The notes under the pieces are model-generated. The model was not told the origin of the DNA, ran no database searches, and saw only the letters and a list, made by a program, of their open reading frames with translations. A stretch of DNA of 64,000 bases from an uncultured Spirochaetota bacterium. Its GTDB lineage: Bacteria; Spirochaetota; Spirochaetia; SZUA-6; CAVTHK01. Location of the stretch: positions 288,001 to 352,000 of the forward strand of contig CAVTHK010000011.1 in NCBI GenBank assembly GCA_963734495.1. The letters are read 5' to 3'. Numbering within the stretch: position 1 is the first letter of the stretch; each line of letters begins with the position of its first letter. The position numbers and the translations under genes are program-made. This document shows, in pieces, positions 51,284 through 56,537 of the stretch.

Positions 51284-52203
51284 GGATCGTGGGCCGCACC
51301 TGGGACATCCTCGGCGCCGGCGCGGTCACCGTCGACGACCTGCTGTACGTGGACGAGTACCCGGCCGCGGAAAGCAAGATCAGGGTCAAGGCAAGCGACC
51401 GGCAGGTCGGCGGGCTCACGGCCACGGCCCTGGTCGCGGCCGCGCGCCTGGGCGCCCGCTGCGCCTTTGCCGGCGTGCTCGGACGCGACGAGCTCTCCGA
51501 GCTGGTCATGTCGCGGCTCTCGGCCGAAGGGATCGACCTTGCCGGCGTCGTCCGCCGCGACGCTGCGCGGCCGAGACACTCGACGATCATCGTCGACCTC
51601 TCGCGCAACACGCGCACGGTCCTGGTCGACACGGGCGGCATCGACGAGGACCCCGGCGTTCCGGGCGAGGCGGCGGTGTCGGCGGCGGCCGTCCTCTTTC
51701 TCGACCACACGCACGGCGCGCGGATGCTGCGCCTGGCGCGCGCCGCGCGGGAGAGGGGAGTGCCCACGGTGGCCGACTTCGAGCGCGACACCCTGCCGGA
51801 GCTCCGCGAGCTGATCGAGCTGACGGACCACCTCATCCTCCCCTGGTCTCTCGCCCGCGTCCTCACGGGCGCGAACGAGCCGGCGCACGCGGTGGAGCGG
51901 CTGCAGGCCGCGCGGCGCGCGGCGGTCGTCGTGACGCGCGGCGAGCAGGGCGCGTGGTACCTGGCCGCCGGCGCGGCAGGCGTCGCGCACCAGCCCGCCT
52001 TTCGCGTGCCGGTGGTGGACACGACCGGCTGCGGCGACGTGTTCCACGGCGCCTACGCCGCGGCGCTGGCCGAGGGCCTCGCCGCGGCCGATCGCGTGCG
52101 CCTCGCCTCGGCAGCCGCCGCGCTCAAGGCGATGCGCCGCGGGGGGCAGGCCGGCATACCGACCGGCGCCGAAGTGCGCGCGTTTCTCGCCGGGCGCGCC
52201 TGA
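51280..52203 (+). CDS. PfkB-family carbohydrate kinase
   Basis: GG...TA..AAARLG, VTRGEQG, VDTTGCGDVFHG. Confidence 0.93.
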   Translation: MRIVGRTWDILGAGAVTVDDLLYVDEYPAAESKIRVKASDRQVGGLTATALVAAARLGARCAFAGVLGRDELSELVMSRLSAEGIDLAGVVRRDAARPRHSTIIVDLSRNTRTVLVDTGGIDEDPGVPGEAAVSAAAVLFLDHTHGARMLRLARAARERGVPTVADFERDTLPELRELIELTDHLILPWSLARVLTGANEPAHAVERLQAARRAAVVVTRGEQGAWYLAAGAAGVAHQPAFRVPVVDTTGCGDVFHGAYAAALAEGLAAADRVRLASAAAALKAMRRGGQAGIPTGAEVRAFLAGRA

Positions 52204-52289
52204 TTTCGGTCCCGTCGGCCAAGCTGAGCAATTCTGTCATAAAAGAACTCAGTCCGCGGCGATTGCATGCAAAGGGATTGCGCAGCTCT

Positions 52290-52315
52290 TCGACATCTTG
52301 ATATAACTATGTCGA
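52290..52315. promoter_or_regulatory. Candidate ArsR operator
   Basis: TCGACAT-CTTGATATAACT-ATGTCGA inverted repeat in an AT-rich patch upstream of arsR. Confidence 0.65.
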
Positions 52316-52377
52316 GATCTGCCTGCGCCGCGGCGCGGGCGGTCTCGCGACGCGGGATGCCGCGAAAGGCGGAAGCG

Positions 52378-52743
52378 ATGCAGCACGAGCTCGAGGGACG
52401 GCTCGCCGCAGACAGGCAGAAAGCGGCCTCCGTCTCGGAGACGCTCCGGGCGCTCGCGCACCCGGTGCGGCTGCGCGCGGTCGCGATCCTGTGCGAGGGC
52501 GACGAGTGCGTGAGCGGGCTCGCCCGCAGGCTCGGCCTCAAGCAGGCGATCGTCTCGCAGCAGCTCCGCATCCTGCGCATGTCGCGGCTCGTCGCCACGA
52601 GCCGCGACGGGGGCTTTGTGCGCTACACGCTGGCGGAGCCGCGGCTCCGCCAGCTGGTTCGCTGCTTCGAGGGGTGCAGGGCGGCCGGCGAGGTCACCGC
52701 CCGCGCCCCGCGCATCGCGCGCAAGAGAGGAGTCGACAGGTGA
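52378..52743 (+). CDS. ArsR/SmtB-family repressor (BigR/SqrR-like Cys pattern)
   Basis: LRALAHPVRL, VSQQLRILR, R.G..V.Y.L; Cys in ILCEGDEC and CFEGC. Confidence 0.88.
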   Translation: MQHELEGRLAADRQKAASVSETLRALAHPVRLRAVAILCEGDECVSGLARRLGLKQAIVSQQLRILRMSRLVATSRDGGFVRYTLAEPRLRQLVRCFEGCRAAGEVTARAPRIARKRGVDR

Positions 52744-53276
52744 ACGTCGAACAGGAGCTCGCGGGGCTCAAGGAGAGGGTGGAAGCGCTGCCCGGCAAGG
52801 AGCACAAGCTCTCGATGGTCGTGTTCTCGGGCGAGCTGGACAAGCAGCTCGCCGCCATGATCATCGCCACGGGCGCGGCCGCCATGGGTATGAAGGTCGT
52901 GCTGTTCTTCACCTTCTGGGCGACCGCGGCGCTGCGCGATCCGGCGAAGCACGTGAACGGCAAGTCCTTCATGGGCCGGATGTTCGGCCTGATGCTGCCC
53001 AGGGGCAAGGGACGGCTCAAGCTCTCGCAGATGCACATGGCGGGCGCGGGCACGGCGATGCTCAAGGCTCTCATGGTGAGCAAGCGCGTCGCCAGCCTCG
53101 ATCAGCTCTTCGAGATCGCGGCCCAGATCGGGGTCGAGATCAAGATCTGCGAGATGTCGATGAGCCTCATGGGGTTCAAGCGGGACGAGATGATCGACTA
53201 CCCGAATCTCGAGGTCTGCGGGGTGGCGACGTTCCTCGCGAACGCCGGCGAGTCGTCGGTGCAGCTGTTCATATAG
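52740..53276 (+). CDS. DsrE/DsrF/DrsH-like (DsrE2-type) sulfurtransferase
   Basis: VFSGELDK, GAAAMG, FFTFW, CEMSM..MG, GVATFL. Confidence 0.9.
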   Translation: MNVEQELAGLKERVEALPGKEHKLSMVVFSGELDKQLAAMIIATGAAAMGMKVVLFFTFWATAALRDPAKHVNGKSFMGRMFGLMLPRGKGRLKLSQMHMAGAGTAMLKALMVSKRVASLDQLFEIAAQIGVEIKICEMSMSLMGFKRDEMIDYPNLEVCGVATFLANAGESSVQLFI

Positions 53277-53287
53277 GAGGTCGAGCG

Positions 53288-53527
53288 ATGGCGGACTACA
53301 CGGTGACGAAGACCCTGGACTTCAAAGGCCTGCCCTGCCCGATCCCGGTCGTCAAGATCAGCCAGGAGATCGGCAAGATCGCCGTCGGCCAGGTGGTCGA
53401 GGTGCTCACCACCGACCCCGGCTCGCTCGCCGACTTTCCGGCATGGGCGAAGACCACGGGCCACGCGGTGCTGGAGACGAAGCAGGAGCCGGGCCTCATC
53501 CGCATCTTCGTGAAGCGGCAGAAATAG
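53288..53527 (+). CDS. tusA: TusA-family sulfur carrier
   Basis: LDFKGLPCPIP (CPxP), TDPGS..DFPAW; AGGAGG RBS. Confidence 0.92.
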   Translation: MADYTVTKTLDFKGLPCPIPVVKISQEIGKIAVGQVVEVLTTDPGSLADFPAWAKTTGHAVLETKQEPGLIRIFVKRQK

Positions 53528-53529
53528 CC

Positions 53530-54351
53530 ATGCCCGATCAGCCGAACGTTCTCAGCGCCGCGACGGCCGCCGCCAGGCCCGCGGTGGAGGCGGTGTCCTC
53601 GGCGTCCAAGGCGATCGCGGGGGGATGGCTGGGGCCGGCGCTGGAGAATCTCTACTACTTCATCATGGTCCCGATGGTCTACCTGGCGATCGTCGCGCTG
53701 GTCGCCGGAGTGGCCGCGCGGATCGCGGTGATCGTCCGCGCGCCGGTCCACCCGTACCCCCTGCGGCTCTACCCCGCGGCCAGGGCCCCCGGGCTCGCGG
53801 CCCTGCGCGACACGTTCGCGATGACGCAGGTGCGGAAGCACAAGCCGGGGTTCTGGGCGTTCCTCATGATCTACCACGTCGCGTTCGCTCTGCTGATCCT
53901 CGGCCACCTCGACATCTTTTCCGGCATCAGCCTGCTGCCCGAGGGCTCGAAGCACATGCTCGGCGCGGGCGCCGTCGGCGTGGCCGTCACCCTGTCGCTG
54001 CTCGCGTTTCTCGTGCGCCGTTTCCGCAGCCCCGAGCGGGAGATCTCCACTCCGGGAGATTACCTCGTTCTCCTGCTCCTCCTTTTCATCTTCCTGCTCG
54101 GCGACGCCATCAGCTGGTCGAACTCGTGGGGGCCCCACGGCTTCGTCATCACCAAGGCGGACTTCGCGAAGTACTTCGACGGCCTGGCGAGCTTGAGCTT
54201 CCGCAACCCGAGGGAAGTCCTGCCCGGGTCGCACTATCACTTCATCGTGCTCCACGTGCTCCTCGCGAACCTCTTCCTCATCACGCTTCCGTTCACCAAG
54301 ATCATGCACACGTTCCTCGCCCTGCCGATCAACAGCCTGAGGAGGCGGTAG
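53530..54351 (+). CDS. NarI/DsrM/TmcC-like membrane cytochrome b
   Basis: TM helices with candidate haem His pairs (YH..LGH; LH..PFTKIMH) and RR..REISTPGDY. Confidence 0.82.
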   Translation: MPDQPNVLSAATAAARPAVEAVSSASKAIAGGWLGPALENLYYFIMVPMVYLAIVALVAGVAARIAVIVRAPVHPYPLRLYPAARAPGLAALRDTFAMTQVRKHKPGFWAFLMIYHVAFALLILGHLDIFSGISLLPEGSKHMLGAGAVGVAVTLSLLAFLVRRFRSPEREISTPGDYLVLLLLLFIFLLGDAISWSNSWGPHGFVITKADFAKYFDGLASLSFRNPREVLPGSHYHFIVLHVLLANLFLITLPFTKIMHTFLALPINSLRRR

Positions 54352-54391
54352 GAATGGACCGGGCGATACCGCGCGAGGGGAGGCACTAGCC

Positions 54392-55666
54392 GTGGACAAG
54401 GCGACACAGGGCAAATTGAAGGAGCTCTTCGCGTCCAAGCTGAACGGCGCGATGCGCCTGTACCTCGAGACCTGCGCCCGCTGCGGCGTCTGCGTCGAAG
54501 CCTGCCACGTCTACGCCTCGATGCCCGAGATCAAGCACACCGCCGTCGGCCGCGCCGAGGTGGTGCGGAAGCTGTTCCGCCGTTACTTCAAGCTGCAGGG
54601 CAGGGTCGCGCCGTGGCTCGGCGAGGTGATCGAGCTCGACGACGCGGCCGTGGACAAGGTCTACGACGCCGCCTACACGTGCACCGGCTGCCGCCGCTGC
54701 ATGACGTACTGCCCTTTCGGGATCGACACGCAGATGATCCAGTCGATCGCGAAGCTCCTGCTGATCGGCGCCGACCGCGAGCCCAAGCTGCTGTCCATGC
54801 TCGCCGACATGTCGATCGCCAAGGGCGAGACCGTCGGCGAGACGCGGGCGAGCTTCGAGGAGGCGGTGCGCAACCTCGGGCCCGAGGTGCGGGCTCTGTG
54901 GCCCGAGCCGAGCCGCCCGGGCGAGCCGCTTATCCCGGTGAATGCCGCGGGCGCCGACGTGCTCTACGTGGCGCTGGCGGGCAAGCACTCGATCGTGCCG
55001 GCCGCCGCGATCATGAACGCGGCGGGCGAAAGGTGGTCGCTGTCGTACTTCGAGGCCGTGAACTTCGGCGCCTTCGTGGGGGATTCGGAGAAGGCGCAGG
55101 CCATCGGGCAGCGGATCGTCGAGGAGGCCGAGCGGCTCGGGGTCAAGGAAGTGGCGATCGTCGAGTGCGGCACCGCGTTCCGATTCATGAAGTATATGAC
55201 CGGCAGCCATCCCTTCAAGGTGGTGGCCTTTGTCGAGCTCATCGCGCGCTACCTCCGCGAGGGCCGCATCCGCCTCGACCGCACGAAGGTTCACGGCAGG
55301 ATCACCTACCACGACCCGTGCCAGATCGCCCGCAACGGAGGCGTGATCGAGGAGCCCCGGCAGGTGATCAGGGCGCTCACGGGCAACTTTGCCGAGCTCC
55401 ACCCCAACCGCGAGGACAACTGGTGCTGCGGAGGCGGCGGCGGTCTCGTCGCGATGGGAGAGAAAGAGTTCCGGATGAAGTCGGCGCGCGTCAAGGCCGA
55501 CCAGATCCGGGCGAGCAACGCCAACATCGTCTGCACGGCCTGCGAGAACTGCCACACGCAGCTCACGGACATCAACGAGCACTACGGGCTCGGCATGAAG
55601 GTGGAGTTCCTGTCGAAGCTGGTGGCGGACGCGCTGCTGCCTCGGGAGACGGCGGAAACGAAATAG
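54392..55666 (+). CDS. DsrK/TmcB/HdrD-like Fe-S protein with CCG domain
   Basis: CARCGVCVEAC, CTGCRRCMTYCPFGID, YHDPC, CCGGGGG, TACENC. Confidence 0.9.
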   Translation: MDKATQGKLKELFASKLNGAMRLYLETCARCGVCVEACHVYASMPEIKHTAVGRAEVVRKLFRRYFKLQGRVAPWLGEVIELDDAAVDKVYDAAYTCTGCRRCMTYCPFGIDTQMIQSIAKLLLIGADREPKLLSMLADMSIAKGETVGETRASFEEAVRNLGPEVRALWPEPSRPGEPLIPVNAAGADVLYVALAGKHSIVPAAAIMNAAGERWSLSYFEAVNFGAFVGDSEKAQAIGQRIVEEAERLGVKEVAIVECGTAFRFMKYMTGSHPFKVVAFVELIARYLREGRIRLDRTKVHGRITYHDPCQIARNGGVIEEPRQVIRALTGNFAELHPNREDNWCCGGGGGLVAMGEKEFRMKSARVKADQIRASNANIVCTACENCHTQLTDINEHYGLGMKVEFLSKLVADALLPRETAETK

Positions 55667-55697
55667 CGGCGCCCCGCCGCTTTCGACGGGGCGCCGC
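55666..55697. terminator. GC-rich hairpin between convergent genes
   Basis: 11-bp stem GCGGCGCCCCG/CGGGGCGCCGC. Confidence 0.55.
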
Positions 55698-55718
55698 CGG
55701 GGGTACGGGGCCGGGCGC

Positions 55719-56339
55719 TCAGTCGACGTGGCCCCCGGCCGCGGCCTCGCCGTGCGCGCCGCCTGCCGCGGCCGCCTCGTAGAGGCGCTCGACCCAGTGC
55801 ACGTACTCCACGTAGGACTCGATCGCCTCCCTGCCGGCCGCGACGTCGCTCGCGGCGAACGCCTTCTTCTCCACGGCCTCCCCGAACTGGCGGTGCAGCC
55901 CGTCGCGCACGGCGTCGAGCAGGAGCGCCTCGAGCGCCTCGGGCTTGCCGTTCTCGAGGGCGCGGTCAGCCGCGGGAATCGCGGGCCCGAGGTCGCGGCC
56001 CGCGGGCTTGAGGCCGGTGTACGGGGCGCCTTCGCCCGCGCGGTGCAGCCGCACGAGCGTCTCGAAGAAGTAGTTGTCCGCGAGCTCGCGGCCTTCCGGG
56101 CTGGCCTTGCGCACGGCCAGCGTCTTCGCGAACGCCTGCCGCAGCTCAGGCTCCTGATCCTTCTGCACCCAGATCAGGACTCGGTTGACGTCCCTGGTCT
56201 CGAGGGCCGCCTTGCCGGCGGTCACGACGGGGCCGTCCACGCCGTCGCAGTGCGCGAACGCCTTGGGGCTGCCCAGGAACAGGAACGCGGACGCGGCCAG
56301 CACGGTGAGGGTGAGCGGAGCCAGGCTTCTCGTCTTCAT
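55719..56339 (-). CDS. Secreted DUF6448-like protein
   Basis: Signal peptide ending AFA, then HCDGVDGPVV, FFETLVRLHRAGEGAPYTGLKP. Confidence 0.75.
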   Translation of the reverse strand: MKTRSLAPLTLTVLAASAFLFLGSPKAFAHCDGVDGPVVTAGKAALETRDVNRVLIWVQKDQEPELRQAFAKTLAVRKASPEGRELADNYFFETLVRLHRAGEGAPYTGLKPAGRDLGPAIPAADRALENGKPEALEALLLDAVRDGLHRQFGEAVEKKAFAASDVAAGREAIESYVEYVHWVERLYEAAAAGGAHGEAAAGGHVD

Positions 56340-56478
56340 CTTTCTTCCTCCACTTGGGTTTTGGACGATCGCGGCGAGGATCGTCTCGTGGAAGCTATGG
56401 AGGAAGCGGAAGAGCGAACATGATCCAGATCAGATTGCCGCAGCGCGGCGTCAGTGCCTTCGCGCCGGGGTCCGCCCC

Positions 56479-56507
56479 TTGACCGCCGAATTCCCCCGGC
56501 TTAGGAT
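56479..56507 (+). promoter_or_regulatory. Sigma70-type promoter
   Basis: TTGACC-N17-TAGGAT. Confidence 0.65.
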
Positions 56508-56537
56508 GCGTCATTCCCCTCCACCGAGGAGCTTCAG

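Follow-up and report, generated by a model that had tools for sequence, protein, structure and literature searches.

So far, enzymes of the DsrK/HdrD type have been linked to three types of substrate or partner: the heterodisulfide CoM-S-S-CoB, the DsrC trisulfide, and the electron-transfer flavoprotein (ETF). In cytochrome-containing methanogens, a cytochrome b and a CCG subunit (HdrDE) reduce a cytoplasmic disulfide; the electrons come from a carrier in the membrane, and the system forms a redox loop. The DsrMKJOP complex is a menadiol:DsrC-trisulfide oxidoreductase, in which electrons pass from the DsrM haems to the non-cubane cluster of DsrK and on to the DsrC trisulfide, and sulfide is released (Barbosa 2024, PMC10861901). 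The YTD cluster of sulfur disproportionators encodes YedE, TusA and a DsrE-like protein together with two hypothetical proteins (PMC8528874). Here we describe a five-gene cassette from an uncultured Spirochaetota bacterium that combines sulfur carriers with a DsrMK-like pair. It lies in a window of 64,000 nucleotides, the whole stretch of DNA that was analysed (assembly GCA_963734495.1, contig CAVTHK010000011.1, positions 288,001 to 352,000 of the forward strand). We propose, with a probability of roughly 0.45, that the cassette encodes a quinol-driven reductase that frees sulfide from TusA- or DsrE2-bound sulfur.

The cassette consists of five co-directional open reading frames (ORFs) on the plus strand (window 52267-55666), in the order ArsR, DsrE2-like, TusA, DsrM-like (M) and DsrK-like (K). 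The features are as follows.

52290-52315, no strand: operator-like inverted repeat TCGACAT-N12-ATGTCGA (sequence reading and inverted-repeat scan)
52378-52743, plus strand: ArsR/SmtB-type winged-helix regulator, 121 amino acids (HTH_5, 6.2e-12)
52740-53276, plus strand: DsrE2-like sulfur-carrier candidate (PF13686), 178 amino acids (DrsE_2, 1.6e-45)
53288-53527, plus strand: TusA sulfur carrier, 79 amino acids (TusA, 2.6e-22), with an upstream GGAGG ribosome-binding site
53530-54351, plus strand: NarI/DsrM-type membrane cytochrome b, 273 amino acids (Nitrate_red_gam, 2.6e-10)
54392-55666, plus strand: DsrK-like cytoplasmic iron-sulfur subunit, 424 amino acids (CCG, 1.3e-14; Fer4_8, 1.4e-12)
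55665-55698, no strand: GC-rich hairpin of 15 pairs, directly 3' of the K-like stop codon

The intergenic distances along the cassette are -4, 11, 2 and 40 bases; the GTG start of the DsrE2-like gene overlaps the ArsR stop codon by four bases (GTGA), and the K-like gene also starts with GTG, preceded by GGAGG. A second in-frame ATG for the regulator occurs at 52357, and in relatives the alignment begins at residue 7-9 of the shorter protein. A sequence-only reading of this locus had reported five tightly spaced genes for an ArsR, a DsrE2-type protein, TusA, a NarI-like cytochrome b and a CCG protein behind an inverted repeat. The ORFs, the Pfam assignments and the repeat scan bear out both the arrangement and the gene content.

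The nearest named family of the K-like protein is DsrK, its best match among the NCBIfam equivalogs (NF045796, 249.5 bits against a cut-off of 400), followed by TmcB (NF045724, 225.5 of 735) and HmcF (NF045711, 206.5 of 750). The protein contains two CX2CX2CX3C motifs (C28/31/34/38 and C97/100/103/107), a CCG domain with C310, C345, C346, C384 and C387, and an additional invariant C259. All 14 cysteines are kept in 50-51 of 51 relatives. These motifs match those that define DsrK, namely two CX2CX2CX3C motifs and a C-terminal CXnCCGXmCXXC. Scores on the DsrK model in 24 genomes with cassette relatives fall into three ranges: true DsrK at 720-740 bits, a second DsrK-like class at 330-346 and the cassette copies at 235-270. 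True DsrK is co-resident in 14 genomes.

The K tree comprises 92 rows (quick IQ-TREE, LG+C20, TfrB/HdrD-like outgroup), with the paralogues from cassette genomes labelled by NCBIfam. All 51 cassette-type K sequences lie on one side of a branch with a support of 99 in the SH-like approximate likelihood ratio test (SH-aLRT), and their sister is a single Bathyarchaeia sequence (SH-aLRT 99). Outside this clade are DsrK with the 340-bit DsrK2-type class, TmcB-like, HmcF-like, DsrC-adjacent and unnamed groups; the TmcB-like (720-732 bits) and HmcF-like (446-508 bits) paralogues fall in other clades. Since methanogen HdrD and oxidative-type DsrK are outside the tree and its deep forks are open, we claim a distinct clade and assign no sister group to it. 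A remnant of canonical DsrMK, Tmc or Hmc was rejected on the equivalog scores and the tree position. The sequence-only reading would have failed had the MK-like pair grouped within canonical DsrMK in a genome with dsrABC; judged by the tree, which is of K only, the pair stands outside it.

The AlphaFold2 model of K (predicted local distance difference test, pLDDT, 87; predicted template modelling score, pTM, 0.87) finds its best solved fold match in EtfD of M. smegmatis (9ojn; E 9.9e-12, TMq 0.65). A LutA model and the HdrB chains 5odc_B, 7bkb_B and 8rwn_B come next, and no DsrK structure is among the fold matches. The best sequence match in the Protein Data Bank (PDB) is also EtfD 9ojn (2.6e-14), with only the CCG part aligned (residues 256-409). 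Metagenomes contain at least 120 clusters of K-like proteins at 67-83% identity, annotated merely as "(Fe-S)-binding protein" or "Fe-S oxidoreductase".

The M subunit belongs to Nitrate_red_gam (PF02665, 40.7 bits against a cut-off of 22.9) and scores far below the TmcC, NarI and HmcE equivalog cut-offs (27-31 bits). By reading of the sequence it has about five hydrophobic helices. Five histidines are kept in nearly all relatives: H116, H235 and H242 in 50/50, H126 and H260 in 49/50. As candidate ligands of two haems b we consider the pairs His116/His126 and His242/His260, whose spacings of 10 and 18 are presumably those of the NarI haem ligands. A sequence search of M against the PDB returned NarI only, with E-values of 0.5-1.

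Both carrier proteins keep one invariant cysteine. TusA is a clear member of PF01206 (78.9 bits, cut-off 28.6), remains below the equivalog cut-offs of E. coli TusA and YedF (44-46 bits versus 78-79), and has C17 of its CPxP motif (PCPIP) in 44/44 sequences. In the DsrE2-like protein, C137 of the motif CEMSM is kept in 44/44 sequences and C160 in 28/44. The earlier label "DsrE2-type" stands as far as family membership goes (DrsE_2, PF13686, 155.2 bits, cut-off 25). As an assignment to DsrE2 proper it falls short, with 74 bits on the DsrE2 equivalog NF047629 (cut-off 210), and for this reason we call the protein DsrE2-like, a member of PF13686. The host encodes a second, distant DsrE2-TusA pair, 33-35% identical to that of the cassette (locus L106, 4849-8177, that is, contig C9 of host genome G000 at about 354848-358176). 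It belongs to an operon with a MetY-like Cys/Met pyridoxal-phosphate enzyme, ThiF and a JAB-domain protein, which looks like protein-thiocarboxylate sulfur amino-acid synthesis with a DsrE2-TusA relay.

Related loci were collected by scanning one genome per species, and the gene content of the resulting 54 loci was established by tblastn. The order DsrE2-TusA-M-K is found in 43 of the 50 loci with readable upstream DNA. Of the other loci, one is cut inside the cassette and retains TusA-M-K, three are cut at the K gene, and seven have M-K without upstream carriers. The full cassettes occur in four phyla, Spirochaetota, Eisenbacteria, Nitrospirota and Desulfobacterota (Desulfomonile, Desulfarculaceae, Syntrophaceae), and in unclassified metagenome-assembled genomes (MAGs). 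The linkage of the MK-like pair to dsrE2 and tusA is thus conserved well beyond the window, and its absence elsewhere would have counted against the earlier proposal. DsrC is without a match in 27 of the 43 full-cassette genomes and dsrA in 31, and the spirochaete genomes have neither. For the most part, these anaerobes have no sulfate respiration. The module is independent of Dsr. Beyond the four genes and the regulator, clustering of the flanking ORFs revealed nothing conserved past close kin, transporter, rhodanese and SQR-type genes included.

Five of the seven carrier-less loci (L045, L047, L049, L050 and L052) form one Desulfobacterota subclade (SH-aLRT 100), and one of these belongs to a genome in which a full cassette is present as well. 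The sixth, L053, is from a spirochaete and has unrelated upstream genes, and the seventh, L055, is fragmented. In L053 (1-2900) a small secreted protein and a BcrAD/BadFG-like ATPase are encoded upstream of M-K, and K is 68% identical to that of the window. A conserved downstream ORF is present in three of the five subclade loci; in L049 (5267-9089), the sole locus scanned, it encodes a metallo-beta-lactamase-fold protein and is followed by a SulP-family permease.

A different arrangement was observed for another group of DsrK-like paralogues, which have a DsrC-family protein about 1 kb away (L094, L095 and L096, that is, G021 C19, G006 C51 and G029 C81, as well as G028 C179). They come from Eisenbacteria and unclassified MAGs and form their own clade (SH-aLRT 100). 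No dsrA match was found in these four genomes, which may have a DsrC-DsrK-like pair without DsrAB.

The window lies in a spirochaete-like MAG of 5.38 Mb (18 contigs) with a completeness of 83%, and the genomes with the nearest relatives of its cassette carry the label Spirochaetota. At that completeness, no match was found in it for dsrA, for a DsrC/TusE-family protein or for YeeE/YedE (PF04143), and the K-like gene is both its only DsrK-family match and its only CCG domain. Because the K-like gene is the sole CCG domain, the host has no protein of the sHdr, GlpC or LutA type. An sHdr system was rejected on the same ground, there being no second CCG protein (HdrA and LbpA were not searched separately). 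A YTD cluster was rejected as well, as no YedE/YeeE-like permease is found in the host or conserved beside the cassette. The view that the module works without dsrAB, dsrC or sHdr thus agrees with the host's gene content. Its description as "stand-alone" holds in that dsrA, DsrC and any further CCG protein were not found, and needs softening because the genome is only 83% complete.

A co-fold of K with TusA was run three times on 32-row alignments of each protein, next to three controls. The interface score ipSAE was 0.82 (runs 0.85, 0.80 and 0.82), and the best control reached 0.00. The ipSAE mark applied is reached by 116 of 157 solved complexes and by 2 of 215 mismatched pairs, and is rough for alignments of one's own making. 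At least 92% of the contacts were common to the runs, with a partner pLDDT of at least 88. On the TusA side, the predicted interface comprises residues 14, 16-18 (P-C17-P), 20-22, 42-49 and 51-53, including the family-specific stretch TDPGSLxDxPxW, the letters of which are invariant or nearly so in the 32-row alignment. On the K side it comprises 133-164, 195-201, 219-225, 353-356, 385, 388 and 389. The last three residues flank the cluster ligands C384 and C387; the co-fold output names no K residue touching Cys17. The model supports docking of TusA, its Cys17 loop included, on K beside the ligands of the CCG cluster, as the sequence-only reading had envisaged. We know of no solved TusA-CCG complex, and for that reason the co-fold is unlikely to reproduce a memorised structure.

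The carrier-less subclade provides a comparison for this surface. In TusA-linked cassettes, the 39 interface positions of K match the consensus as often as the rest of the protein or more often (ratios 0.96-1.21). In the subclade, 15-20 of the 39 positions match versus 62-65% elsewhere (ratios 0.62-0.79), and in the TusA-linked sisters L034 and L036, 28-29 of 39 match versus 71% elsewhere. The replacements affect otherwise invariant sites: L137 to K or R, D139 to K, G197 to E, H199 to P, and H388 to F or Y. In each of the five subclade loci, the surface of K predicted to face TusA has been remodelled (Fisher p = 0.006 for L049 and 0.12 for L050). The spirochaete locus L053 keeps 28 of the 39 predicted contact residues; carriers were not searched elsewhere in that genome.

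By analogy with DsrMKJOP, we read the cassette as a quinol:carrier-sulfane-sulfur oxidoreductase, in which the four structural genes would form one membrane-bound redox system. The DsrM-like cytochrome b would take electrons from the membrane quinol and pass them via two haems b to the cytoplasmic DsrK-like subunit, whose two [4Fe-4S] clusters would hand them on to the non-cubane, CCG-type cluster. This cluster would act on zero-valent sulfur on Cys17 of TusA, which may be present as a persulfide or may bridge TusA to the DsrE2-like protein at Cys137. The DsrE2-like protein probably loads or partners TusA. Sulfide would leave and the carrier thiol or thiols would be restored. TusA, possibly with the DsrE2-like protein, would stand in for the DsrC trisulfide of DsrMK and for the CoM-S-S-CoB of HdrDE, and the host would gain a DsrAB- and DsrC-independent disposal or respiration of sulfane sulfur. 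We infer the substrate chemistry, the reductive direction, the quinone, any energy conservation and the regulator's signal.

Several observations weigh against this proposal. The co-fold expresses a model's confidence and is not a measurement, and the divergence of the interface reflects just one event in evolution and serves as a pointer. The DsrE2-like protein scores low on the DsrE2 equivalog, and the function of DsrE2 itself is unclear (PMC11094781). In the loci compared, the cassette has neither a sulfur importer nor a rhodanese linked to it. In the EMO of Syntrophus, an HdrDE-like module runs towards quinone (preprint 10.64898/2026.08.18.745454). The direction is the main uncertainty of the reductase reading. 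The supply of quinone is a second doubt. MenB is over its cut-off in 0/27 genomes, the host included, and MqnA was found neither in the host nor in any of 25 genomes of the cassette-rich family f5. In genus g16 (G102-G122), MenA is over the cut-off in 1 of 16 cassette holders and 4 of 5 non-holders, a division which may reflect a single split because these genomes are kin. Reduction of a persulfide by menaquinol is also thermodynamically tight.

Other data leave room for a quinol donor. The host has MenA (116.7 bits, over the cut-off), a genuine NarI (249.5 bits) and ferrochelatase, which makes a quinol-using haem b enzyme plausible; these three genes are found in G000 at C17:15950-16609, C1:302170-302910 and C1:473574-474470. 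Weaker UbiA-family matches occur in 26/26 genomes searched. The combination of NarI and MenA without MenB or MqnA suggests nitrate respiration with a salvaged naphthoquinone precursor, the salvage being a guess. Overall, the quinone searches neither support nor exclude a quinol donor.

A more specific form of the reductase would use the bridge itself as substrate. In this case, the enzyme would reduce a TusA-Cys17/DsrE2-Cys137 sulfur-bridge "heterodisulfide", would represent a fourth kind of DsrK/HdrD-type terminal reductase, and would carry out an energy-conserving, molybdenum-free respiration of zero-valent sulfur. We regard this version as rather unlikely. If true, fermentative spirochaetes, Eisenbacteria and others would respire without DsrAB/DsrC or Psr/Sre, using a minimal redox-loop sulfur respiration spread via gene transfer.

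The system might also run in the opposite direction, such that K would form a carrier persulfide by oxidising sulfide together with the thiol of TusA or DsrE2, while electrons would leave via the cytochrome b to quinone. This would amount to an SQR-like detoxification or a sulfur-mobilising route with protein-bound sulfane sulfur as its product, in a host that could respire nitrate. Oxidation of sulfide by menaquinone is exergonic and the easier reaction. Quinone reduction by an HdrDE-like module is exemplified by EMO in the Syntrophus preprint, a proposal exists that EMO ties sulfane-sulfur oxidation to menaquinone in sHdr clusters (PMC11094781), and repressors of the SqrR/BigR/SoxR type govern sulfide or sulfur oxidation genes (PMC10451225). 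The true NarI of the host fits as well, the role of the second DsrE2-TusA pair in a biosynthetic ThiF/MetY/JAB operon indicates that pairs of this kind can donate sulfur, and the K-TusA co-fold is compatible with either direction. The closest studied relatives point the other way: HdrDE, like DsrMK, works reductively and oxidises quinol- or phenazine-type carriers (for DsrMK, PMC10861901). Many carriers of the cassette are sulfate reducers or fermenters of sulfidic, acceptor-poor habitats with no obvious sink for sulfide oxidation, and no consumer of a TusA persulfide is linked to the cassette. On balance, we consider the oxidative direction unlikely.

The substrate of the complex could instead be a carrier thiosulfonate, such as TusA-S-SO3- derived from thiosulfate or tetrathionate. 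The complex would then be a reductase linked to either compound in the cytoplasm. In Metallosphaera cuprina, DsrE3A and TusA do bear thiosulfonate beside an Hdr-like complex (PMC4175335; PMC11094781), and the nearest NCBIfam matches of the cassette TusA include YedF- and TusA-type carriers. The carrier encoded here is of the DsrE2 family and not DsrE3A, and the YeeE/YedE thiosulfate importer is missing from the host as sequenced and from the related loci, so that we find this substrate very unlikely. Least probable of all is an indirect linkage, in which the MK-like pair would exchange electrons with some other donor or acceptor in the cytoplasm, in the way that EMO/EtfD works with ETF, and DsrE2-TusA would supply sulfur, for example for building or repair of the enzyme's unusual clusters or for thiolated cofactors: the fold match to EtfD 9ojn (TMq 0.65), the cysteine desulfurase, ThiI, Mrp/NUBPL-type carrier and flavodoxin genes up to 5 kb downstream in spirochaete kin, and the persistence of M and K in a subclade without carriers would fit it, but the cassette has no linked genes for ETF or another donor, those downstream genes are conserved among close kin only (8-12 loci) and absent from the window, the co-fold sets the TusA Cys loop beside the CCG ligands, where a substrate is expected, and the TusA-facing surface of K is altered where TusA was lost, as expected of a substrate site.

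The downstream genes just mentioned were seen in 8-12 close spirochaete loci (among them L002-L005, L008, L020, L028, L029 and L043), about 50-5500 bases from K. They encode flavodoxin, an Mrp/NUBPL-type Fe-S carrier ATPase, a second ArsR-type regulator, a class-V aminotransferase of the cysteine-desulfurase type, and ThiI. All five are absent from the window.

Returning to the quinol-driven reductase, its expression would be controlled by the first gene of the cassette. The regulator matches HTH_metalloreg of NCBIfam (72.8 bits, cut-off 55) and lies below the cut-off of the BigR equivalog (62.4 bits, cut-off 155); its closest solved relatives are the persulfide sensors SqrR (6o8l, 3e-13) and BigR (3pqj, 1.7e-12). 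A full-text search on "TsoR", a weak NCBIfam match of the regulator, returned an unrelated paper only. In SoxR, SqrR, BigR and sHdrR, two common cysteines become sulfur-bridged, with defining positions C41/C107 in SqrR and C50/C116 in SoxR (PMC10451225). The window's regulator has four cysteines, C39, C44, C96 and C100. Over the window and 19 related loci, C96 and C100 are kept in 20/20, C39 in 18/20 and C44 in 1/20, so the cysteines noted earlier near helices 2 and 5 are real and, except for C44, conserved. In the HMMER alignments, C96 is the end of the aligned stretch, and C100 is about one residue from the expected place of SqrR C107.

The core of the inverted repeat, GATATAACTATGTC (52300-52313), is located 65 bases 5' of the ATG at 52378 and fits a 6-2-6 palindrome, GATATA-NN-TATATC. 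With up to two mismatches, 14 of 20 loci have this palindrome at a fixed distance in front of the regulator gene, and these 14 are the spirochaete loci; shuffled upstream regions gave a mean of 0.22 loci and a maximum of 3. The palindrome was not found in six Desulfobacterota loci with this type of regulator, and a strict sigma-70 scan detected no promoter upstream of the regulator. An ArsR-type repressor would probably bind the palindrome, in the form GATATA-NN-TATRTC, and would be expected to come off once reactive sulfur modifies its conserved cysteines; the binding itself we infer from the position and conservation of the repeat.

An ArsR-type regulator is encoded directly upstream in 26 of the 43 full cassettes, 19 being of this type and 7 of other ArsR types; four cassettes have a MarR-like regulator. 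Three observations speak against thiol-based sensing as a general property. The helix-2 cysteine of SqrR and BigR aligns opposite A36, and C39 of the regulator follows three residues later. The seven other ArsR-type regulators keep a single cysteine. Finally, 13 of the 43 cassettes have no recognisable regulator. Thiol-based sensing is plausible for the window's copy and, judging from these sequences, not universal among cassettes.

The distribution of the cassette among the relatives of the host is patchy. Within the host's order, the K-like gene was found in 17 of 92 genomes. Apart from the host, these all belong to a single genus of another family, in which 16 of 21 genomes have the gene. 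It is absent from the host's only genus mate (99% complete). In this genus mate, the genes for the PfkB kinase and the 2-hydroxyacid dehydrogenase enclose PAP2, DUF6675 and GDPD genes in place of the cassette and its DUF6448 neighbour. These flanks are 78-81% identical at the DNA level (window 52112-56537 compared with L109, G075 C12 23000-29000). Because the genus mate carries other genes at this spot, the cassette appears as a unit gained or lost there.

The DUF6448 gene (1.3e-58; window 55719-56339, minus strand) is convergent with the cassette and encodes a protein with a signal-peptide-like N-terminus; it has no counterpart beside the cassette in any related locus. The hairpin at 55665-55698 is terminator-like for this gene, and the operon probably ends there too. 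Termination on the plus strand is an extrapolation, because the T-run is on the minus strand only.

A search for expression data found no sequencing run above 0.12 of the sampled words. One soil RNA library contained three short contigs of a relative, corresponding to 52220-52423 (6 differences), 53201-53412 (10) and 54136-54302 (3), of which the second spans the dsrE2-tusA junction. They are too little for claims on transcription, operon structure or habitat. A full-text literature search, which did not cover the 2019 TusA review (Tanabe, Leimkuehler, Dahl) and supplements, found no description of the cassette. To the extent of that search, the new elements are the placement of K relative to co-resident paralogues, the counts of DsrC and dsrA among cassette genomes, the co-fold of TusA with K and the divergence of its interface, the operator motif, the indel relative to the genus mate, and the caveat on quinone supply.

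A widespread TusA/DsrE2-wired version would, if true, add a new substrate class to the DsrK/HdrD-type enzymes and provide the poorly understood DsrE2 family with a concrete partner. It would also reveal a capacity for sulfur cycling in anaerobes of wetlands and sediments, including Spirochaetota, Eisenbacteria and uncultured lineages, organisms that surveys based on dsrAB, psr or sqr markers overlook. The idea is directly testable, as only four small to medium-sized proteins are involved and the co-fold names residues for mutation.

Among the known systems, the SqrR/BigR/SoxR/sHdrR regulators (PMC10451225, PMC12423496) resemble that of the cassette in being ArsR-type, with conserved cysteines in both helix 2 and the C-terminal helix, and in having their genes, along with a palindromic site, immediately before those for sulfur metabolism; the cassette regulator differs by having two C-terminal cysteines (CxxxC) instead of one. 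The YTD cluster likewise encodes TusA and a DsrE2-like protein together in anaerobes that handle intermediate sulfur, whereas its two hypothetical proteins are lacking here and, as described in PMC8528874, it has no redox module. In the sHdr system (Tanabe 2024, PMC11094781) and in the DsrE3A-TusA system of Metallosphaera cuprina (PMC4175335), TusA and DsrE carriers are genetically tied to a CCG enzyme and deliver sulfur. The sHdr enzyme is soluble (HdrAB1B2C1C2 with LbpA) and oxidative, whereas that of the cassette is predicted to be membrane-bound and of the DsrMK type.

EMO/EtfD, an ETF:(methyl)menaquinone oxidoreductase, is likewise built on the HdrDE plan, containing non-cubane clusters as well as haems b, and is the best PDB sequence and fold match of K; in contrast, it is one fused polypeptide with ETF as its partner and runs towards quinone, and no etf gene is found near the cassette. 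HdrDE also combines a membrane cytochrome b with a CCG-cluster subunit, and HdrB chains are among the fold matches of K. Its substrate is a small-molecule heterodisulfide, whereas K of the cassette is predicted to dock a carrier protein; HdrD is absent from our tree. DsrMK is similar in having a NarI-type dihaem cytochrome b and a cytoplasmic subunit with two ferredoxin-type clusters and one C-terminal CCG domain, in its gene order, M then K, and in its substrate, protein-bound zero-valent sulfur (PMC10861901), which is also the one proposed for the cassette. The two systems differ in their surroundings, the host lacking DsrJOP, DsrC and DsrAB in its 83% complete genome, and in their partners: DsrC has a two-cysteine arm, whereas the cassette encodes TusA and a DsrE2-like protein, with one invariant cysteine each.

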